NCBI GenBank assembly: GCA_036501005.1
Contig: DASYBA010000456.1
Location: 1 to 30,997 of the forward strand
Direction: 5' to 3'
DNA: 30,997 nt
DNA from: Candidatus Xenobia bacterium
Lineage (GTDB): Bacteria; Vulcanimicrobiota; Xenobia; RGZZ01; DASYBA01
Made by a program: the position numbers and the translations under genes. Of this stretch, positions 9,434 to 22,967 are shown piece by piece. Under the pieces are notes generated by a model. The model worked only from the letters and a program-made list of their open reading frames with translations. It searched no databases and was not told where the DNA came from. Position 1 is the stretch's first letter. Every line of letters starts with the position of its first letter.

Positions 9434-10249
9434 ATGATTCGAGAGTTCTTTCACCACCGGCTCCAACCCCAGGCTACCATGGATGGCCTCATGCAGGCAG
9501 CGCGGGCATCGACCCCTGACTGGACGCCTTCGACCCCCCTGTCCGACATTCGCAACGCCCACGTCACCAACACGCCGGCCGAGATGGAGACCGCCTTGCG
9601 CGGCGACGCCAACTGCCTGGAGGCCGACGTCCGGCTAGCGGGGGACGTCCGCCCCATGCCGGGCTATCGAAACCGCCCCGTCATCGCAGCCCACTGGGAC
9701 TGGGACACGCATGGCCTGACCTTGCCGGAGTGGTTGAAGGTGGGAAGTGCCTCTGGCCGCATGCTCAAACTGGACTTCAAGAGTGCGGCGGCCATCCGCC
9801 CGGCTTTGAAAGATTTGAAGGCGTCGGGCATCCCCGGCGAGCGGTTGATGCTGAACGGCGGCATCGACCTGCGCCGGGGCACGTCGCCTCTCGGCATCGC
9901 GATGTCAGTGCACAACCTCTTCTTTGCCAGCCACACCTCGGTCGGCATCTTGCAAGAGATGCGGAGGGCCTACCCGTCAGCCCTCATCGCCCTGTCGCCT
10001 TCCCACCAACCCCGCGCCGAACGCGACTATCGAAAAATCAGCGACTGCGCGACCGCGGTGGGTGGACCGCTGACCTTTCCGTTGGCCGCCAGCATGGTCG
10101 ACGAGGAAGTCGTCCGCCGGCTGAAGCCCTACGGCAGCGTATCGGTCTATGCCAGCGAGGGGTCTTTCAAAGTGACCGACGTGGCCAAGGACACCGAACA
10201 TTTCCGTCGCATGGGCGTGGACGGGGTCATCGACCTCGCCCAGCACTGA
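9434..10249 (+). CDS. Hypothetical protein, possibly PLC-like / GDPD-like phosphodiesterase fold (DUF2181/FAM151-like)
   Basis: NAHVTNTPAEMETALRGDANCLEADVRL has the H...E...E/D spacing typical of glycerophosphodiester phosphodiesterase-like folds. Weak call by motif only. Confidence 0.45.
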   Translation: MIREFFHHRLQPQATMDGLMQAARASTPDWTPSTPLSDIRNAHVTNTPAEMETALRGDANCLEADVRLAGDVRPMPGYRNRPVIAAHWDWDTHGLTLPEWLKVGSASGRMLKLDFKSAAAIRPALKDLKASGIPGERLMLNGGIDLRRGTSPLGIAMSVHNLFFASHTSVGILQEMRRAYPSALIALSPSHQPRAERDYRKISDCATAVGGPLTFPLAASMVDEEVVRRLKPYGSVSVYASEGSFKVTDVAKDTEHFRRMGVDGVIDLAQH

Positions 10250-11644
10250 CCTCCAGGCGGCGCACCAGGCGGACCACGTCCTCCTCTGTCGTTCGATAGT
10301 TGGTGACGCATGCTCGCAATACGGGGCGCCCTCCGCCCAGTCGCGTGGTGGAGATCCAGGCGTCGCCGGAGGCCACCACCGTGCGGGCCAGGGCCTCCAG
10401 ATACGGGAGCGTCCCCCCGTCAGGATGCTCGCCGTCGACAAAGCAGACCAGCGGCAGTCGCGTCTGGTTGACGACCCGCCAGCCGTATCGAGTGAGCTCC
10501 GTGCGGAGAAACTCGCCGACGGCGGTCTGGTGGCGCAAAGCCTGGGCGTAGCCCTCCCAGCCCGCGACGGCCAGGGACATGAGGACCTTCAACCCCATGA
10601 AGCGGCGAGACCACTGCAGAGAGTGTCGATAGGGGTCGACGTGGTCGGCCTCTCTGGGCATGTAGCTGGCCTCCATGTCGAACGTCTGCTCGAGAATGTG
10701 GACATGGCGGGTCAGGTACATGCCGGCCCCCATGGGCACCGACAACCACTTATGGGCATCGAAGGCGATGGAGTCGGCTTGTTCGATCCCGGCCAGCAAA
10801 GCCTGGAGCTCGGGGACCAGAACGGCCGCCCCTCCCCAGGCCGCGTCCACGTGGAACCACAGCCCTTCGGCGCGAGCCAGGGCCGCCAGACGGGGCAGCG
10901 GATCGATGGCGCCGCCGCTGGTCGTCCCCGCCTCGTGCCCACCACCATGAAGGGGGTTTTGCCGGCACGGCGGTCCTCCTCGATGGCGCGGGTGAGGGCG
11001 GCGACGTCCAGGGTCTGGTCCTCCCCGACCGGGACCTCTCGTAGCCCGGCCGCCCCGAGACCCGACACGCGGGCCGCCTTGTGGAACGAGTGGTGGGCCT
11101 GTTCCGATACGTATAGAACGGGCCGCAGCCCGGTCAGCCCTTCGGTGGCAAATTGCGGAAACGACTGCGTCAGTGCCGTCAGAACCGCCGTGTGGTTCGC
11201 CTCGGTGCCCCCGGAGGTGAAGGTGCCGTCTGTGGCCGCGTATCCGAAACGACTGCCGAAGGTCTGGATGACGTGCCGTTCCGCGGCGTTGGCAAACGGA
11301 CTGTGGCTCCACGAGGCCAGTTGCGGATTGAAGGCGGCCACCAGGGTGTCGGCCGCCACCCCCATGGTCGTCGGGGCCGGATTGAAGAGCCCAAAATAAC
11401 CTGGGTGCGACGTGTGGACCTGATCCACCTCCAGCCCTCGAGTGACGTGCGCGACGACCTCCTCCGGCGCCATGGGCCGGCCGAAGTCAAACGGGGCGAG
11501 CAGTTCCGCCGCTCGGTCTCGGGAGGGCGCCACGGGGAAGGTCTCGACCTCAGCGAGGAACTTTTCGACCTCGGATGAGACCCGCTCCCATAGGAGCTGT
11601 CGCTCCCGAGACTCGAGGGTCAGGCGGTCAGGGCTGCTGGGCAA
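10227..11644 (-). pseudogene. Group II pyridoxal-phosphate-dependent amino acid decarboxylase, split by a frameshift near 10930-10940
   Basis: N-terminal part in frame 10712..11644 (SHPGYFGLFNP, FTSGGTEANHTAV, ...PFMVVGT). C-terminal part in frame 10227..11312 (AGTTSGGAIDPL, FHVDAAWGG, FDAHKWLSVPMGAGM with the PLP lysine). The joined reading PFMVVGT-AGTTSGGAIDPL matches the family (compare GAD ATAGTTVYGAFDPL). The local sequence ggcacg-ag-gcggggacgacc needs a 1-nt addition or 2-nt removal to restore the frame. Confidence 0.7.
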
Positions 11645-12269: not shown

Positions 12270-12758
12270 ATGATCATCCTCGGCATCGACCCGGGCACCG
12301 CCACCACCGGCTACGGCGTCATCGAAATGGATGGCGACAGTTGCAAGACCCTGGACTACGGCTGCATTCGCACCACGCCCGACCGCAGCCGGCAGGACCG
12401 GCTGAAGATCATCCACGGGCAGATGCTGGCCATCCTGGACCGCTGGCAGCCGGATGTCATGGCCATCGAGCAGCTCTTCTTCAACCGCAACACCAGCACC
12501 GCCATGGTGGTGGGCGAGGCTCGCGGCGTGATGCTGTTGGCGGCCTCCATGCGAGAAGTGTCCGTCGCGGAATACACCCCGATGGTCGTGAAGCAGGCCC
12601 TGGTGGGGTACGGACGGGCGTCGAAGTCGCAGGTCGAGGACATGGTCCAACTGGAACTGGGCCTCAAGAAAGCCCCCAAGCCGGACGACGTATCGGATGC
12701 CCTCGCCATCGCCCTGACCCACTGCTTTCTCGGAGCCCGCCTGCCCAAAGCCGTCTAG
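12270..12758 (+). CDS. ruvC: Crossover junction endodeoxyribonuclease RuvC
   Basis: MIILGIDPGTATTGYGVIE... catalytic Asp/Glu pattern. Upstream of ruvAB. Confidence 0.95.
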   Translation: MIILGIDPGTATTGYGVIEMDGDSCKTLDYGCIRTTPDRSRQDRLKIIHGQMLAILDRWQPDVMAIEQLFFNRNTSTAMVVGEARGVMLLAASMREVSVAEYTPMVVKQALVGYGRASKSQVEDMVQLELGLKKAPKPDDVSDALAIALTHCFLGARLPKAV

Positions 12759-12979
12759 CGGCCTTTCAAGAGCCCCACGATCTCTTCGGGCGTCGGCATG
12801 TGGCCGGCCTCCCGTTTGGAAAAGACCTTCTGGCCATCGACCCGAACGTCGAGAACCCCGGGGGCGGCCATGGCCAGTTGGGCTTCAATGCCCAGTTCGG
12901 CCCGAATGGCTTCCTGCAAGCGCACGGCTTGCGCCTTGATGTCGGGTCAAATAAAGCAGCGCTTGATTTCGACTTCCAT
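12755..12979 (-). CDS. SelW/Rdx-family small redox protein, predicted selenoprotein (CxxU, Sec at in-frame TGA 12947-12949 on the minus strand)
   Basis: Minus-strand translation gives MEVEIKRCFI-U-PDIKAQAVRLQEAIRAELGIEAQLAMAAPGVLDVRVDGQKVFSKREAGHMPTPEEIVGLLKGR. This matches the bacterial Rdx pattern (IEI.YC..C/U ... G.GGVFEI.VDGELIWSRK..G.FP.PKEL). GGAGG sits 4 nt upstream of ATG 12979. Candidate SECIS-like hairpin GCAAGC-cgugc-GCUUGC begins about 15 nt after the UGA. Stop TAG shares the CTAG tetranucleotide with the ruvC stop. Confidence 0.7.
12917..12933 (-). promoter_or_regulatory. Candidate bacterial SECIS-like stem-loop downstream of the in-frame UGA
   Basis: Minus-strand GCAAGC/GCUUGC 6-bp stem. 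Loop contains GU. Positioned 15-31 nt after the UGA. Structure not computed. Confidence 0.35.
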
Positions 12980-13218
12980 GTTCCCTCCTATAGGGCGGTT
13001 TTCAACCAGACTTGGAATGTGGTCATTATTGTAGCCTCGCCAGTCCGTCGAAAGCAATACCCTGTCTTCCGTCCTGAGTGCCATGGGGTCGACCTCCTGA
13101 TGCTGAGCATGGCATGGCGCCCCCTTTTCCTGTCATGGGGGCAGGGGAAGCATACTCGGGCGTCATTTCCAGCTTCTTGCCCGGTCATGGCCAAAGGCCG
13201 CGAAAGTGTTGCAGGAAG

Positions 13219-13464
13219 ATGTCCAGGAAGCCGGGGGAGGGCGACGTAGTACCGCGCGTGCAGCCGACCGAGTCTGATTTCGTAGTCCTTCACCAGGGCA
13301 TTCCGAGGCTTCGCGACAGTGGCATAGCGGTGCGCGAGGTTTTTCAACTGTGGCGGTCCGGGGTCAACATGGCGGACATCCCGGGGCGCCTGCCGGCGCT
13401 ATCTGTCGCCGAGGTCTTCGCCGCCTTGCGATACGCCCGAGACCATGAGGATCAGCTCTCGTGA
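13219..13464 (+). CDS. DUF433 family protein (antitoxin-like small HTH-containing domain), orphan
   Basis: DFVVLHQGIPRLRDSGIAVREVFQLWRSGVNMADIPGRLPALSVAEVFAALRYA matches the DUF433 consensus. Start ATG 13219 is uncertain and upstream in-frame codons exist. Stop overlaps the ruvA GTG (GTGA). Confidence 0.6.
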   Translation: MSRKPGEGDVVPRVQPTESDFVVLHQGIPRLRDSGIAVREVFQLWRSGVNMADIPGRLPALSVAEVFAALRYARDHEDQLS

Positions 13465-21917: not shown

Positions 21918-22967
21918 CTAGACAGAGCGCCAGCGCAGCACCATCAAGGTGATGTCGTCGGGAAAGGTGGTCGCGGCCGTGCCGACGTGCTCTCGCAGGC
22001 GGCCCAGCAGATCGATGCTGCTGCCCTCTCCCGCCCCAACCAGGAGTTCGTCGACGCTCATGCGGCCGAGTCGGGAGCCGTCAGCCCGTATCGCATCGAC
22101 CAGGCCGTCGGTGTAGCCAAAGACTCGGTCGCCGCTGTGCAGTTGGCGCCGCTCCTGGGTATACTTGGCCTCCGACAGGACCCCGAGCATGACGCCGGTG
22201 GCCCCCAGCTCCTCGAACGCGCCGTCGTCCAACAGCAACACGGGCTCGTGGCCAGCGCTGGCATAGGTGAGGCTACCGTCCGATAGGTTCAGGACCATGT
22301 AGAACAGCGTGACGAACTTCTCACCCTCCAGGTGGCCAGCCAATCGCTCGTTCAGATAAGCCAGGACCTGGGCGGGATCCGACGTGCGCCCGGGCGCGTC
22401 GGCCAGCAGTCCAATCAATACGGAGGCGGCCAGGGCGGCCGGCGCCCCCTTGCCCGACACGTCGGCCAGGGCCACCATGAGCAGGTCGCCTTCCAGCGTC
22501 GCCTTGATGGCGTCTCCACCGAGCGACCCGGCAGGTTGGAACCAGGTGGCCAGATCTAGACTGGGGTGCCGGGGAACGCCCCGATAGAGCACCTCCTGGA
22601 GGGCCCGGGCCTGATCCAGCTCTCTCGCCATGACGTCGCGCATGGCGGTGATGACGCGCTGCTGATGGGCGAGCCGTGCCGAAACCACGGTGGTCGCGAC
22701 GACCATGACCCCGATGAGGAACTCGTTGGCCGCGACCGGCTGCCAATCAGTCACCTGGCTCTGGTAGGACAAGTCCGAGTGAAGCTGACAGAAGAAAGCC
22801 ACCACCGCCATGACGGCCGCCCAGCGCCAACCCCAGGTCCACCCCGTGAGGGCGACGGGGAAAAGATAGAGGATGCCCGCGACGATGCTCGGGTGGGTGG
22901 ACTCGTCCAGCAGCAGGACCGCCACAAACCACCCGATGACCAATACGGCCTGAACCCGTCTGCTCAT
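21918..22967 (-). CDS. Membrane-anchored PP2C-family (SpoIIE/RsbU-like) serine phosphatase
   Basis: Four N-terminal TM helices, then GGDAIKA...VADVSGKGAPAALAASVL...YTDGL PP2C motifs. Start ATG 22967 (AAGAGG 8 nt upstream) preferred over the ORF-track 23063. Confidence 0.75.
   Translation of the reverse strand: MSRRVQAVLVIGWFVAVLLLDESTHPSIVAGILYLFPVALTGWTWGWRWAAVMAVVAFFCQLHSDLSYQSQVTDWQPVAANEFLIGVMVVATTVVSARLAHQQRVITAMRDVMARELDQARALQEVLYRGVPRHPSLDLATWFQPAGSLGGDAIKATLEGDLLMVALADVSGKGAPAALAASVLIGLLADAPGRTSDPAQVLAYLNERLAGHLEGEKFVTLFYMVLNLSDGSLTYASAGHEPVLLLDDGAFEELGATGVMLGVLSEAKYTQERRQLHSGDRVFGYTDGLVDAIRADGSRLGRMSVDELLVGAGEGSSIDLLGRLREHVGTAATTFPDDITLMVLRWRSV

Follow-up and report, generated by a model that had tools for sequence, protein, structure and literature searches.

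In the stretch of DNA that we have analyzed, 30,997 nucleotides of a contig from a Candidatus Xenobia bacterium (DASYBA010000456.1, assembly GCA_036501005.1; hereafter the window), a minus-strand frame lying tail to tail with ruvC raises a question that concerns a single codon: Does the TGA at its eleventh position mark the end of a broken gene, or does it specify the selenocysteine (Sec) of a small redox protein? Our results make it very probable that the region 12755-12979 on the minus strand holds an intact gene encoding a 74-residue selenoprotein of the SelW-like (Rdx) family, the UGA of which would be read as Sec via a SECIS element lying downstream of it (table 1).

Table 1. Features of the candidate selenoprotein gene and of its predicted SECIS element, with positions in the window
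Feature	Position	Strand	Details
Complete selenoprotein CDS (predicted)	12755..12979	-	74 codons plus TAG stop (12755-12757); based on translation, Pfam, codon usage and homologs
CTAG common to the convergent stops	12755..12758	.	TAG of ruvC (+) at 12756-12758; TAG of the selenoprotein gene (-) at 12755-12757
UGA plus SECIS region, end-to-end match of subfamily covariance model R2	12902..12949	-	35.4 bits, E=5.2e-6, partly reflecting coding-sequence homology and not structure alone
Predicted SECIS core hairpin	12916..12932	-	stem GCAAGC/GCUUGC, 6 bp; 12927-12932 pairs with 12916-12921
Apical loop CGUGC	12922..12926	-	20 nt between UGA and loop
In-frame TGA, predicted Sec codon	12947..12949	-	position in homologs; coding signal on both sides
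TGC, Cys8, first residue of the CxxU redox motif	12956..12958	-	aligned with the first Cys of the CxxC in 3DEX and 2LJK
ATG start	12977..12979	-	exactly 10 codons 5' of UGA
Shine-Dalgarno-like GGAGGG	12983..12988	-	3 nt 5' of ATG (4 nt if measured from GGAGG, the core), a somewhat short spacing; Shine-Dalgarno function predicted from sequence

Translation of the frame gives MEVEIKRCFIUPDIKAQAVRLQEAIRAELGIEAQLAMAAPGVLDVRVDGQKVFSKREAGHMPTPEEIVGLLKGR, in which U stands for codon 11. This is the only TGA in frame, in the context C-F-I-TGA; the 74 codons contain no other stop and no frameshift, and their product is collinear over its full length with about 220 homologs. The neighboring ruvC spans 12270-12758 on the plus strand. 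A first-pass annotation, made from the letters and their open reading frames, had described a 74-codon gene with C-F-I-U at this place, preceded by a Shine-Dalgarno sequence and ending in a TAG that overlaps the ruvC stop within CTAG, and had remarked that ORF callers break such a gene at its UGA; all these points are reproduced by the translation and by the coordinates of table 1, and in JGI's annotation of this contig, 3300036780 Ga0376652_0003396, we find the gene indeed divided into two minus-strand calls, of 56 and 45 residues, on either side of the TGA. The JGI record, which is independent, carries the identical TGA.

The codon usage of the whole frame scores 0.54 bits/codon, to be compared with 0.62 for ruvC and 0.56 for ruvA, and the 10 codons that precede the TGA are equally gene-like (0.79 bits/codon). 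When the TGAs of all six frames were scanned, that of codon 11 was the only one in the window to be flanked on either side by codon usage typical of genes, and no second selenoprotein candidate emerged from the scan. A longer N-terminus, starting from the ATG at 13084, was also considered and discarded, its in-frame extension being non-coding (-0.40 bits/codon).

Membership of the Rdx/SelW family, as proposed in the first-pass annotation, is borne out by profile searches and by resemblance in sequence to three proteins of solved structure. When C is put in place of U, the product matches Pfam Rdx (PF10262) at 29.0 bits, above the gathering threshold of 22.6, residues 3-71 aligning with positions 2-72 of the 74 in the model; all nine of the subfamily relatives that were scored also exceed this threshold. 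For NCBIfam TIGR02174 (CXXU_selWTH) the score is 33.2 bits, 1 bit below the cut-off of 34.2, and seven of the nine relatives likewise fall below the cut-off, while a main-family control reaches 57.4; judged by its sequences, the clade to which the product belongs, which we call IKRC after its N-terminal motif, is borderline and divergent with respect to this model. The best-scoring NCBIfam model, NF041051 (SelTWH_Campy), aligns over all 70 of its positions but at 40.8 bits, far below its equivalog cut-off of 88 bits, so that the product is not a member; the main-family control scores 94.7 bits. Among PDB sequences, 2LJK is matched with E=5e-4 (phmmer, residues 6-70), 3DEX with 0.15 and 2FA8 with 0.29, proteins (C17orf37, SAV_2001 and Atu0228, respectively) which we take to be members of the Rdx family. 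The two alignments shown, with 3DEX and 2LJK, superimpose their CxxC column for column upon C8-F-I-U11, and the comparison with Cys homologs that the first-pass annotation had recommended thus places U over the second Cys of the motif. These matches support only indirectly, at the level of sequence, a putative thioredoxin-like alpha/beta fold for the product.

What, then, do the relatives of this protein carry at the position of codon 11? Genome loci of the family were collected from GTDB genomes with a hand-written degenerate DNA pattern, from which the redox motif had been left out: the 109 informative loci comprise 108 with C-x-x-TGA and one with C-x-x-Cys, and the equivalent of Cys8 is kept in every CxxU-type family locus tallied (109/109). 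The subfamily was searched with the pattern M-x-[IV]-E-I-K-R-C-x-x-U, which accepted also TGY, TGG and CGN at the Sec position; nevertheless all of its approximately 113 metagenome members carry TGA, none having Cys, Trp or Arg there, as do the members of the same subfamily found in genomes (5/5). Across 118 subfamily members, the 10 codons that lead up to the TGA are kept in sequence as well as in length; 111 of these members have Met at -10 from the UGA, as in the window gene. An exhaustive HMMER search of a library of 1.8 billion proteins, with the 63 residues following the UGA as query, returned 37 homologs, of which 30 are cut off at the corresponding place, the UGA; a word-indexed search matched only the 56-residue call of the window itself. 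The lone exception is P0011, the closest full-length homolog of the library, with CGA (Arg) at the Sec position. The claim of the first-pass annotation that the TGA sits precisely at the family's second redox position is thus supported, and the scenario that would have undone it, a Cys gene disrupted by a stop, is rejected because the homologs have overwhelmingly TGA, not Cys. As far as sequences can tell, this comparative evidence for Sec at codon 11 is decisive.

The RNA downstream of the UGA provides a second line of evidence, parts of which are more informative than others. Bacterial SECIS elements are expected to have a loop of 3-9 nt, a stem of 4-16 bp, G in one of the first two loop positions, a distance of 16-37 nt from the UGA and a minimum free energy of -7.5 kcal/mol or lower (PMC13188914). 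The window hairpin conforms to all of these limits: it has a 5-nt loop with G at position 2 followed by U, a stem of 6 bp, a distance of 20 nt and a minimum free energy of -17.1 kcal/mol. However, such criteria are unspecific in this DNA and we do not count them as strong evidence, because 146 of the 716 TGAs in the window (20%) satisfy them. Moreover, the hairpin region does not fold with exceptional energy for its GC content, z being -0.7 to -1.0, or +0.2 when a longer segment is taken; across the family, the stability of the SECIS region exceeds that of a control region further downstream only by a narrow margin (p=0.09); and no Rfam match was found in the window.

Covariation is far more telling. 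Across the subfamily, 92.6% of the cells of the hairpin are paired as against 28-44% in slid controls, and compensatory cells number 54 where 19 are expected, a value attained in none of 500 shuffles; the covariation amounts to 0.222, compared with 0.044 at most in slid controls, and the hairpin of the main family attains 0.373 versus at most 0.116. The window hairpin occupies the same position as the consensus hairpin of the subfamily. A covariance model built from 97 subfamily sequences, with the window left out, found its sole significant match, in a search of both strands of the window, at the UGA of codon 11 and the SECIS region (table 1), the next best scoring 13.5 bits, and all six stem pairs are standard in the resulting alignment. 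The model of the main family (R1) gave no match at the candidate hairpin; its best matches lie elsewhere and are GC hairpins with E about 0.04, and MAFFT had misregistered the subfamily sequences in the R1 alignment. With respect to the subfamily consensus GAGGC/GCCUC, the stem of the window (CAAGC/GCUUG) is altered on both sides of two pairs, and these double substitutions employ the minority codons CAA and UUG. Lineage-specific changes of this kind, which preserve the pairing, imply recent selection on RNA structure. The GC stem-loop with a GU-containing loop at SECIS-like spacing, which the first-pass annotation had noticed, thus coincides with a covarying hairpin of the subfamily.

How do other explanations fare against these data? 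The UGA might be a real stop, in which case the locus would be a decaying or truncated Rdx gene encoding at most a fragment of 56 residues from the GTG at 12925. It is precisely this ORF that the JGI pipeline calls, and the fragment on its own still matches Pfam Rdx with 27 bits; yet it would be deprived of strand beta-1 and of the whole CxxU redox centre, it leaves without explanation the gene-like and conserved codons that precede the TGA, and it clashes with a family in which TGA at the redox position is the rule and the hairpin is upheld by compensatory changes. We regard this reading as very unlikely. Another possibility is that the gene is stranded and still undegraded in a lineage that has lost Sec decoding, the UGA now causing termination or low-level near-cognate read-through. 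In its favor, neither selA, selB or selD nor a tRNA-Sec gene (selC) was found within the 31-kb window, and bacteria have often lost the Sec trait in the course of evolution (PMC1794560); in the flanks of 239 related loci, too, no tRNA-Sec gene was found. Against it, the ORF, its start codon, Shine-Dalgarno sequence and stop are all intact, free of frameshifts and extra stops, and the pairing of the SECIS stem has been preserved by double substitutions (CAA...UUG versus GAG...CUC in the consensus), so we judge a relic of this sort to be highly improbable.

The remaining alternatives carry even less weight. That the TGA derives from a recent nonsense mutation, or from a sequencing error, in a CGA (Arg) or TGY (Cys) codon could be argued from P0011, the CGA of which is one base away from TGA, but P0011 is the sole such case beside the 5/5 genome and about 113 metagenome members with TGA, and the independent record of the contig agrees on the codon; the idea is scarcely credible. 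Reassignment of UGA to Trp or Gly, as in genetic codes 4 and 25, could account for the W that several database homologs show at the Sec position. In the one case checked, P0014, this W corresponds to TGA in the DNA, and translating the locus with table 11 fails to give the stored protein, which reveals an artefact of the translation table. The chance of reassignment is negligible and the idea effectively refuted, given that TGA ends 11 of the 19 called genes in the window, from which we deduce the standard genetic code; the genome, moreover, has 65% GC, unlike the known lineages with code 4 or 25. No less negligible is the prospect that the plus-strand ORF 12798-13034 is the true gene, with the minus-strand reading as its shadow. 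This ORF is uninterrupted, with an ATG start and 78 codons, but it has no Pfam match, its codon usage scores -0.16 bits/codon and its GC content by codon position (0.37/0.67/0.66, against roughly 0.65/0.45/0.85 for real genes) bears the signature of an antisense frame, whereas the minus frame has hundreds of homologs. For practical purposes the plus-strand reading is refuted, and the first-pass annotation was right in considering this ORF spurious.

If the gene is a selenoprotein gene, as we maintain, its expression would proceed as follows. Translation would begin at the ATG, at position 12979 of the minus strand, and the UGA of codon 11 would be read as Sec when the hairpin at 12916-12932, acting as a bacterial SECIS, recruits the complex of SelB, GTP and Sec-tRNA(Sec) to the ribosome; one would then expect selA, selB, selC and selD elsewhere in the genome. 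The product would adopt the thioredoxin-like fold with Cys8-x-x-Sec11 as its redox centre, which would cycle between the selenol/thiol and selenenylsulfide states, as befits a small thiol-dependent oxidoreductase. Gene context gives no functional clue, because adjacency to ruvC is kept in none of the 239 related loci, which show no synteny with ruvC, ruvA or ruvB, and because there is no conserved neighbor, the best candidate, an amidase-like ORF, being present in 14 of 63 loci.

The immediate consequence of our analysis is a corrected annotation, in which one gene for a 74-residue selenoprotein replaces two minus-strand fragments or a spurious plus-strand ORF; its presence would also be a sign that selenocysteine is decoded at UGA in this organism. 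On a wider scale, a divergent SelW-like branch is truncated at UGA or mistranslated with Trp in large protein collections, and since most of its members that were tested also score below the NCBIfam cut-offs, it may be undercounted when the selenoproteomes of its environmental lineages are surveyed. Named metagenome-assembled genomes sampled with the clade belong to Rokubacteria, Methylomirabilota and Acidobacteriota. No Cys form was encountered among its approximately 113 sampled members, in contrast to the usual mixture of Sec and Cys forms. It is conceivable, if somewhat doubtful, that the M-x-[IV]-E-I-K-R-C-x-x-U clade constitutes a distinct Rdx subfamily, not separately described, which contains Sec obligately, has its own variant of SECIS, lies mostly below the NCBI naming thresholds and is systematically missing or truncated in annotations. 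If this were true, it would point to a function in which Cys cannot substitute.

With respect to known systems, the gene is a true yet unremarkable representative of the bacterial SelW-like (Rdx) family, a well-known one whose genes are regularly split by gene callers, and what it exposes is mainly an annotation gap that concerns a divergent and seemingly Sec-only subfamily: CxxU Rdx proteins with a SECIS inside the ORF have been known since about 2005, and the bacterial selenoproteins of the SelW-like CXXU type form an abundant family that was recognized long ago (PMC1088965). It resembles the members of this family (PF10262/TIGR02174; Zhang & Gladyshev, PMC1088965, PMC1794560) in its length of about 75 residues, the N-terminal beta-strand followed by C-x-x-U, the TGA at the second redox position, the DVxVDGxxVFSK core and the stand-alone gene, as well as in the predicted SECIS hairpin that lies just 3' of the UGA, inside the CDS, with a small G-containing apical loop. 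Its clade departs from them in the N-terminus, M-x-[IV]-E-I-K-R-C-[FL]-x-U-x-D instead of the usual x-I-x-Y-C-x-x-U-N-Y-x-P-R-A, and in the hairpin, GAGGC-CGKGM-GCCUC as compared with GCCGCC-RGUYU-GGCGGC in the main family, that of the clade being 1 nt closer to the UGA. The domain is homologous to that of mammalian selenoprotein W and of MIEN1/C17orf37 (2LJK), with CxxC and CxxU coinciding where the first helix begins. Eukaryotic Rdx members rely on a SECIS in the 3'-UTR and on SBP2 and eEFSec, and MIEN1 has Cys rather than Sec; unlike them, the window gene has a predicted SECIS of bacterial type within its ORF. In this regard it would follow the same principle as the SECIS-SelB system of fdhF and fdnG in Escherichia coli, in which a hairpin with G-U in its apical loop stands at a short, fixed distance 3' of an in-frame UGA; the window hairpin does not resemble the fdhF SECIS in sequence, and the likeness would be one of mechanistic analogy, not of membership.

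The minus-strand frame from 12979 to 12755, which the first-pass annotation had proposed from the sequence alone as an unannotated gene for a SelW/Rdx-like selenoprotein convergently overlapping ruvC, begins ATG GAA GTC GAA ATC AAG CGC TGC TTT ATT TGA CCC GAC and translates as MEVEIKRCFI*PDIKAQAVRLQEAIRAELGIEAQLAMAAPGVLDVRVDGQKVFSKREAGHMPTPEEIVGLLKGR*, its only internal stop being the TGA at 12947-12949, three codons after that for cysteine. This frame, with its in-frame TGA, Shine-Dalgarno-like sequence and CTAG shared with ruvC, as well as the plus-strand ORF lying opposite, was found just as described, on the evidence of the sequence, its translation, the ORF listing and the split minus-strand calls of JGI. 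The mechanical listing, which also gives the plus-strand ORF, breaks the gene into a 56-residue ORF from the GTG at 12925 and a 45-residue ORF ending at the TGA, and the JGI annotation (contig 3300036780 Ga0376652_0003396) holds both fragments. The TGA is identical in the JGI record, from which the window differs by 1 base in 20.5 kb; this sole mismatch lies at window position 22263, over 20,489 aligned bases. The window runs about 3.9 kb past the end of Ga0376652_0003396, so that both derive from one organism but from separate records or assemblies.

Codon usage was scored as log-odds after training on seven neighbouring genes (see table), and among all the TGA triplets of the window, in all six frames, the one at 12949 on the minus strand is the only one with gene-like usage on both flanks. 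The GC content by codon position of the frame (0.69/0.39/0.75) fits the pattern of the confident genes of the window (about 0.65/0.45/0.85), while that of the plus-strand ORF (0.37/0.67/0.66) is an antisense pattern. Given that 11 of the 19 called genes end in TGA, the organism uses the standard code.

Coordinates and codon-usage scores (bits per codon) of the features around the candidate gene
Feature	Position	Strand	Score	Remarks
Candidate frame, whole	12755-12979	-	0.54	
Ten codons preceding the TGA of the candidate		-	0.79	
In-frame upstream extension of the candidate	to ATG at 13084	-	-0.40	
Shine-Dalgarno-like GGAGGG	12983-12988	-		the ATG follows after 3 nt (4 nt from the GGAGG core)
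Hairpin GCAAGC-CGUGC-GCUUGC	12916-12932	-		apical loop starts 20 nt after the UGA
ruvC (comparison)	12270-12758	+	0.62	convergent with the candidate; both TAG stops overlap in a common CTAG, 4-nt overlap
ruvA (comparison)			0.56	
Plus-strand ORF	12798-13034	+	-0.16	
DUF433 gene	13219-13464	+		separates the candidate from ruvA

With C in place of U, the protein reaches 29 bits against Pfam Rdx (PF10262; gathering score 22.6) and the 56-residue fragment by itself 27 bits; the plus-strand ORF has no Pfam match. Its sequence matches in the PDB are C17orf37/MIEN1 (2LJK, E=5e-4), SAV_2001 (3DEX) and Atu0228 (2FA8), all of which we take to be Rdx-family members, and C-F-I-U falls on their CxxC in the two alignments shown. 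The score for NCBIfam TIGR02174, 'CXXU_selWTH', is slightly below the cut-off (33.2 versus 34.2 bits) and that for NF041051 well below it (40.8 versus 88 bits). The same TIGR02174 cut-off is missed, with 19-32 bits, by seven of nine tested proteins of the IKRC subfamily, the clade with the N-terminus M-x-[IV]-E-I-K-R-C-x-x-U that includes our gene (L035, L081, L084, L095, L124, L194, L209, L229 and L207, scored with U as C), all nine of which pass Pfam Rdx; L032, a control from the main family of usual CxxU loci, passes both NCBIfam models. The NCBI annotation pipeline would probably leave this clade unnamed.

A word-indexed homolog search returned nothing beyond the truncated product of the window itself. 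When the 63 residues downstream of the UGA were searched exhaustively with HMMER, 37 relatives came up, of which 30 are 54-64 residues long and start just past the UGA position, the same truncation artefact as the 56-residue call. Four full-length relatives (P0014, P0025, P0029 and P0038) have 'W' at the redox position; in P0014 the DNA reads TGC GTT CAG TGA AAC TAC, so this W comes from reading TGA with code 4. SelW-like entries in public protein collections are systematically affected in these two ways, by truncation just after the UGA or by W substitution, and the IKRC clade is represented in protein databases mostly by such sequences.

The closest full-length relative, P0011 (MKIEIKRCVYRHDIK...), raises a different question: could the TGA of the window be a nonsense mutation of CGA, the arginine codon which that protein has at the redox position? 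The tallies from genomes and metagenomes argue against this. The scan of GTDB genomes used a degenerate pattern confined to the distal motif, DVxVDGxx[VI]FSK, leaving the redox codon outside, and the loci were then read upstream through TGA. C-x-x-TGA, with a conserved strand and a start codon ahead of it, lies 34-38 codons upstream of the motif in 108 loci from many phyla, all 108 in genomes labelled bacterial; five of the genome loci (L035, L055, L081, L084 and L095) have the window-like N-terminus x-I-[ED]-I-K-R-C-x-x-U. The sole C-x-x-Cys form among 110 informative loci, and the sole one from an archaeal-labelled genome, is L112, around position 1440 (a Methanomassiliicoccales archaeon MAG). 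One locus has TGA at the first Cys position, three are cut off at locus ends and six are chance matches. A metagenome scan with a subfamily-specific pattern, its redox codon open (YGN: TGA, TGY, TGG or CGN), gave 120 loci in which all true members (about 113) carry TGA, the non-TGA matches being unrelated sequences. Of 118 subfamily sequences, 111 have a Met exactly 10 codons ahead of the TGA, and [IV]3, E4, I5 and F/L9, positions outside the constraint of the search pattern, are strongly conserved. Hence TGA is the ancestral and maintained state, selection acts on the peptide upstream of it, and the Arg codon of P0011 is the exception.

P0011 corresponds to L002:530-778, where a Bac_luciferase-family gene follows on the same strand, and is the sole IKRC member with CGA (C-V-Y-R) where the others have TGA; this may reflect a T→C error or else the exchange of Sec for Arg, by which the redox centre would lose its activity. 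Another deviation is seen on the minus strand of L067 (MAG SCS5bin.27), in which the TGA at the first-Cys position, about 35 codons upstream of the match at 2810-2845, gives M-D-I-K-I-K-Y-U-H-A-S-G..., a UxxS rather than a CxxU arrangement.

Published constraints on bacterial SECIS elements call for a loop of 3-9 nt with G in one of its first two positions, a stem of 4-16 bp, a spacing of 16-37 nt from the UGA and a minimum free energy of -7.5 kcal/mol or lower (PMC13188914). The window hairpin fits these constraints: its loop has 5 nt and its stem 6 bp, it is spaced 20 nt from the UGA, and its minimum free energy is -17.1 kcal/mol. Taken by itself, this is weak evidence, since 146 of the 716 TGAs of the window (65% GC) pass the identical test; moreover, the fold energy is unremarkable against shuffles. 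Strong evidence for a SECIS hairpin comes from comparative data. In the main family, 82 of 108 sequences have their predicted apical loop starting 24-25 nt past the U of UGA, and GU occurs within 96 of 131 predicted hairpin loops. Its 6-bp stem, in an alignment of 104 sequences, is 90.4% paired (26-63% with the partner slid); compensatory cells number 65 where 12.8 are expected, and covariation scores 0.373 versus 0.116 at most. The main-family element (alignment A3, L004-L122) is unusually conserved in sequence across many phyla as GCCGCC-RGUYU-GGCGGC and encodes ...R-A-A-[GS]-L-A-A..., RNA and protein constraints being superimposed on the same codons.

For the subfamily, 97 unique sequences aligned without gaps, the window excluded, give a stem (offsets 17-22 and 28-33) that is 92.6% paired versus 28-44% in slid controls, with 54 compensatory cells against 19 expected, a number reached in none of 500 shuffles, and covariation of 0.222 versus 0.044 at most; the covarying pairs include the first position of a Glu/Gln/Arg codon (G or C) with the synonymous third position of Leu (CUC/CUG). 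The window stem occupies exactly these positions, with CAAGC/GCUUG instead of the consensus GAGGC/GCCUC: both sides are changed in two pairs, using the minority codons CAA (10 versus 39 CAG) and UUG (20 of 180 Leu codons). A covariance model of the same 97 sequences, which also captures coding-sequence homology, has one match in the window, end to end at 12902-12949 on the minus strand (35.4 bits, E=5e-6), with six of six pairs standard; the next reaches 13.5 bits. The main-family model did not find the candidate hairpin in the window, because its consensus differs and because MAFFT had placed the few subfamily sequences out of register.

The flanks contain ruvC, the DUF433 gene, ruvA, ruvB, a split PLP-dependent decarboxylase, YebC, a glycosyltransferase, an ABC exporter, two-component and SpoIIE-type signalling proteins and PPK2, and neither sel genes nor tRNAs nor Rfam elements were found within the 31-kb window. 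Two unrelated small genes, one on the opposite strand, thus part ruvC from ruvAB. Among 239 related loci none has ruv genes nearby and none has tRNA-Sec, and the best conserved neighbour is kept in 14 of 63. The candidate is a stand-alone unit, its adjacency to ruvC is incidental, and the context gives no hint of the substrate of its protein. Elsewhere in the window, the decarboxylase (PF00282; 10227-11473, minus strand) is divided between overlapping ORFs at 10227-10799 and 10712-11473, which lie in different frames. This resembles a frameshift and could reflect a pseudogene, an error of assembly or programmed frameshifting. An 826-residue minus-strand ORF (547-3027), with precomputed JGI Pfam assignments MVP_shoulder and Vault_3, is major-vault-protein-like, which is unusual for a bacterial contig; the plus-strand ORF overlapping it (148-3078) has no Pfam match.

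How, then, would the gene work? Given the gene structure, family membership, conserved UGA with both flanks and correctly placed, covarying hairpin observed here, translation would start at the ATG at 12979, SelB-GTP-Sec-tRNA(Sec), held by the hairpin 20 nt downstream, would read UGA-11 as selenocysteine, and Cys8 and Sec11 of the predicted 74-residue thioredoxin-fold product would form a selenenylsulfide redox couple. We consider this account, the best supported one, very probably correct, its Sec insertion, trans-acting machinery and redox role being presumed from what is established on the family and on bacterial Sec decoding; the small probability left is shared chiefly by a truncated or non-functional product and a lineage that recently lost Sec decoding.

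SelW-like CXXU proteins are a long-established family of bacterial selenoproteins (PMC1088965; also PMC1794560), and no other selenoprotein family was as abundant in the data set from the Sargasso Sea (PMC1088965). The candidate is a previously unannotated gene of a type known for twenty years, and its sole mildly novel aspect is the IKRC-type clade, which in our sample is, as read from DNA, exclusively Sec-containing, with a predicted SECIS consensus of its own.
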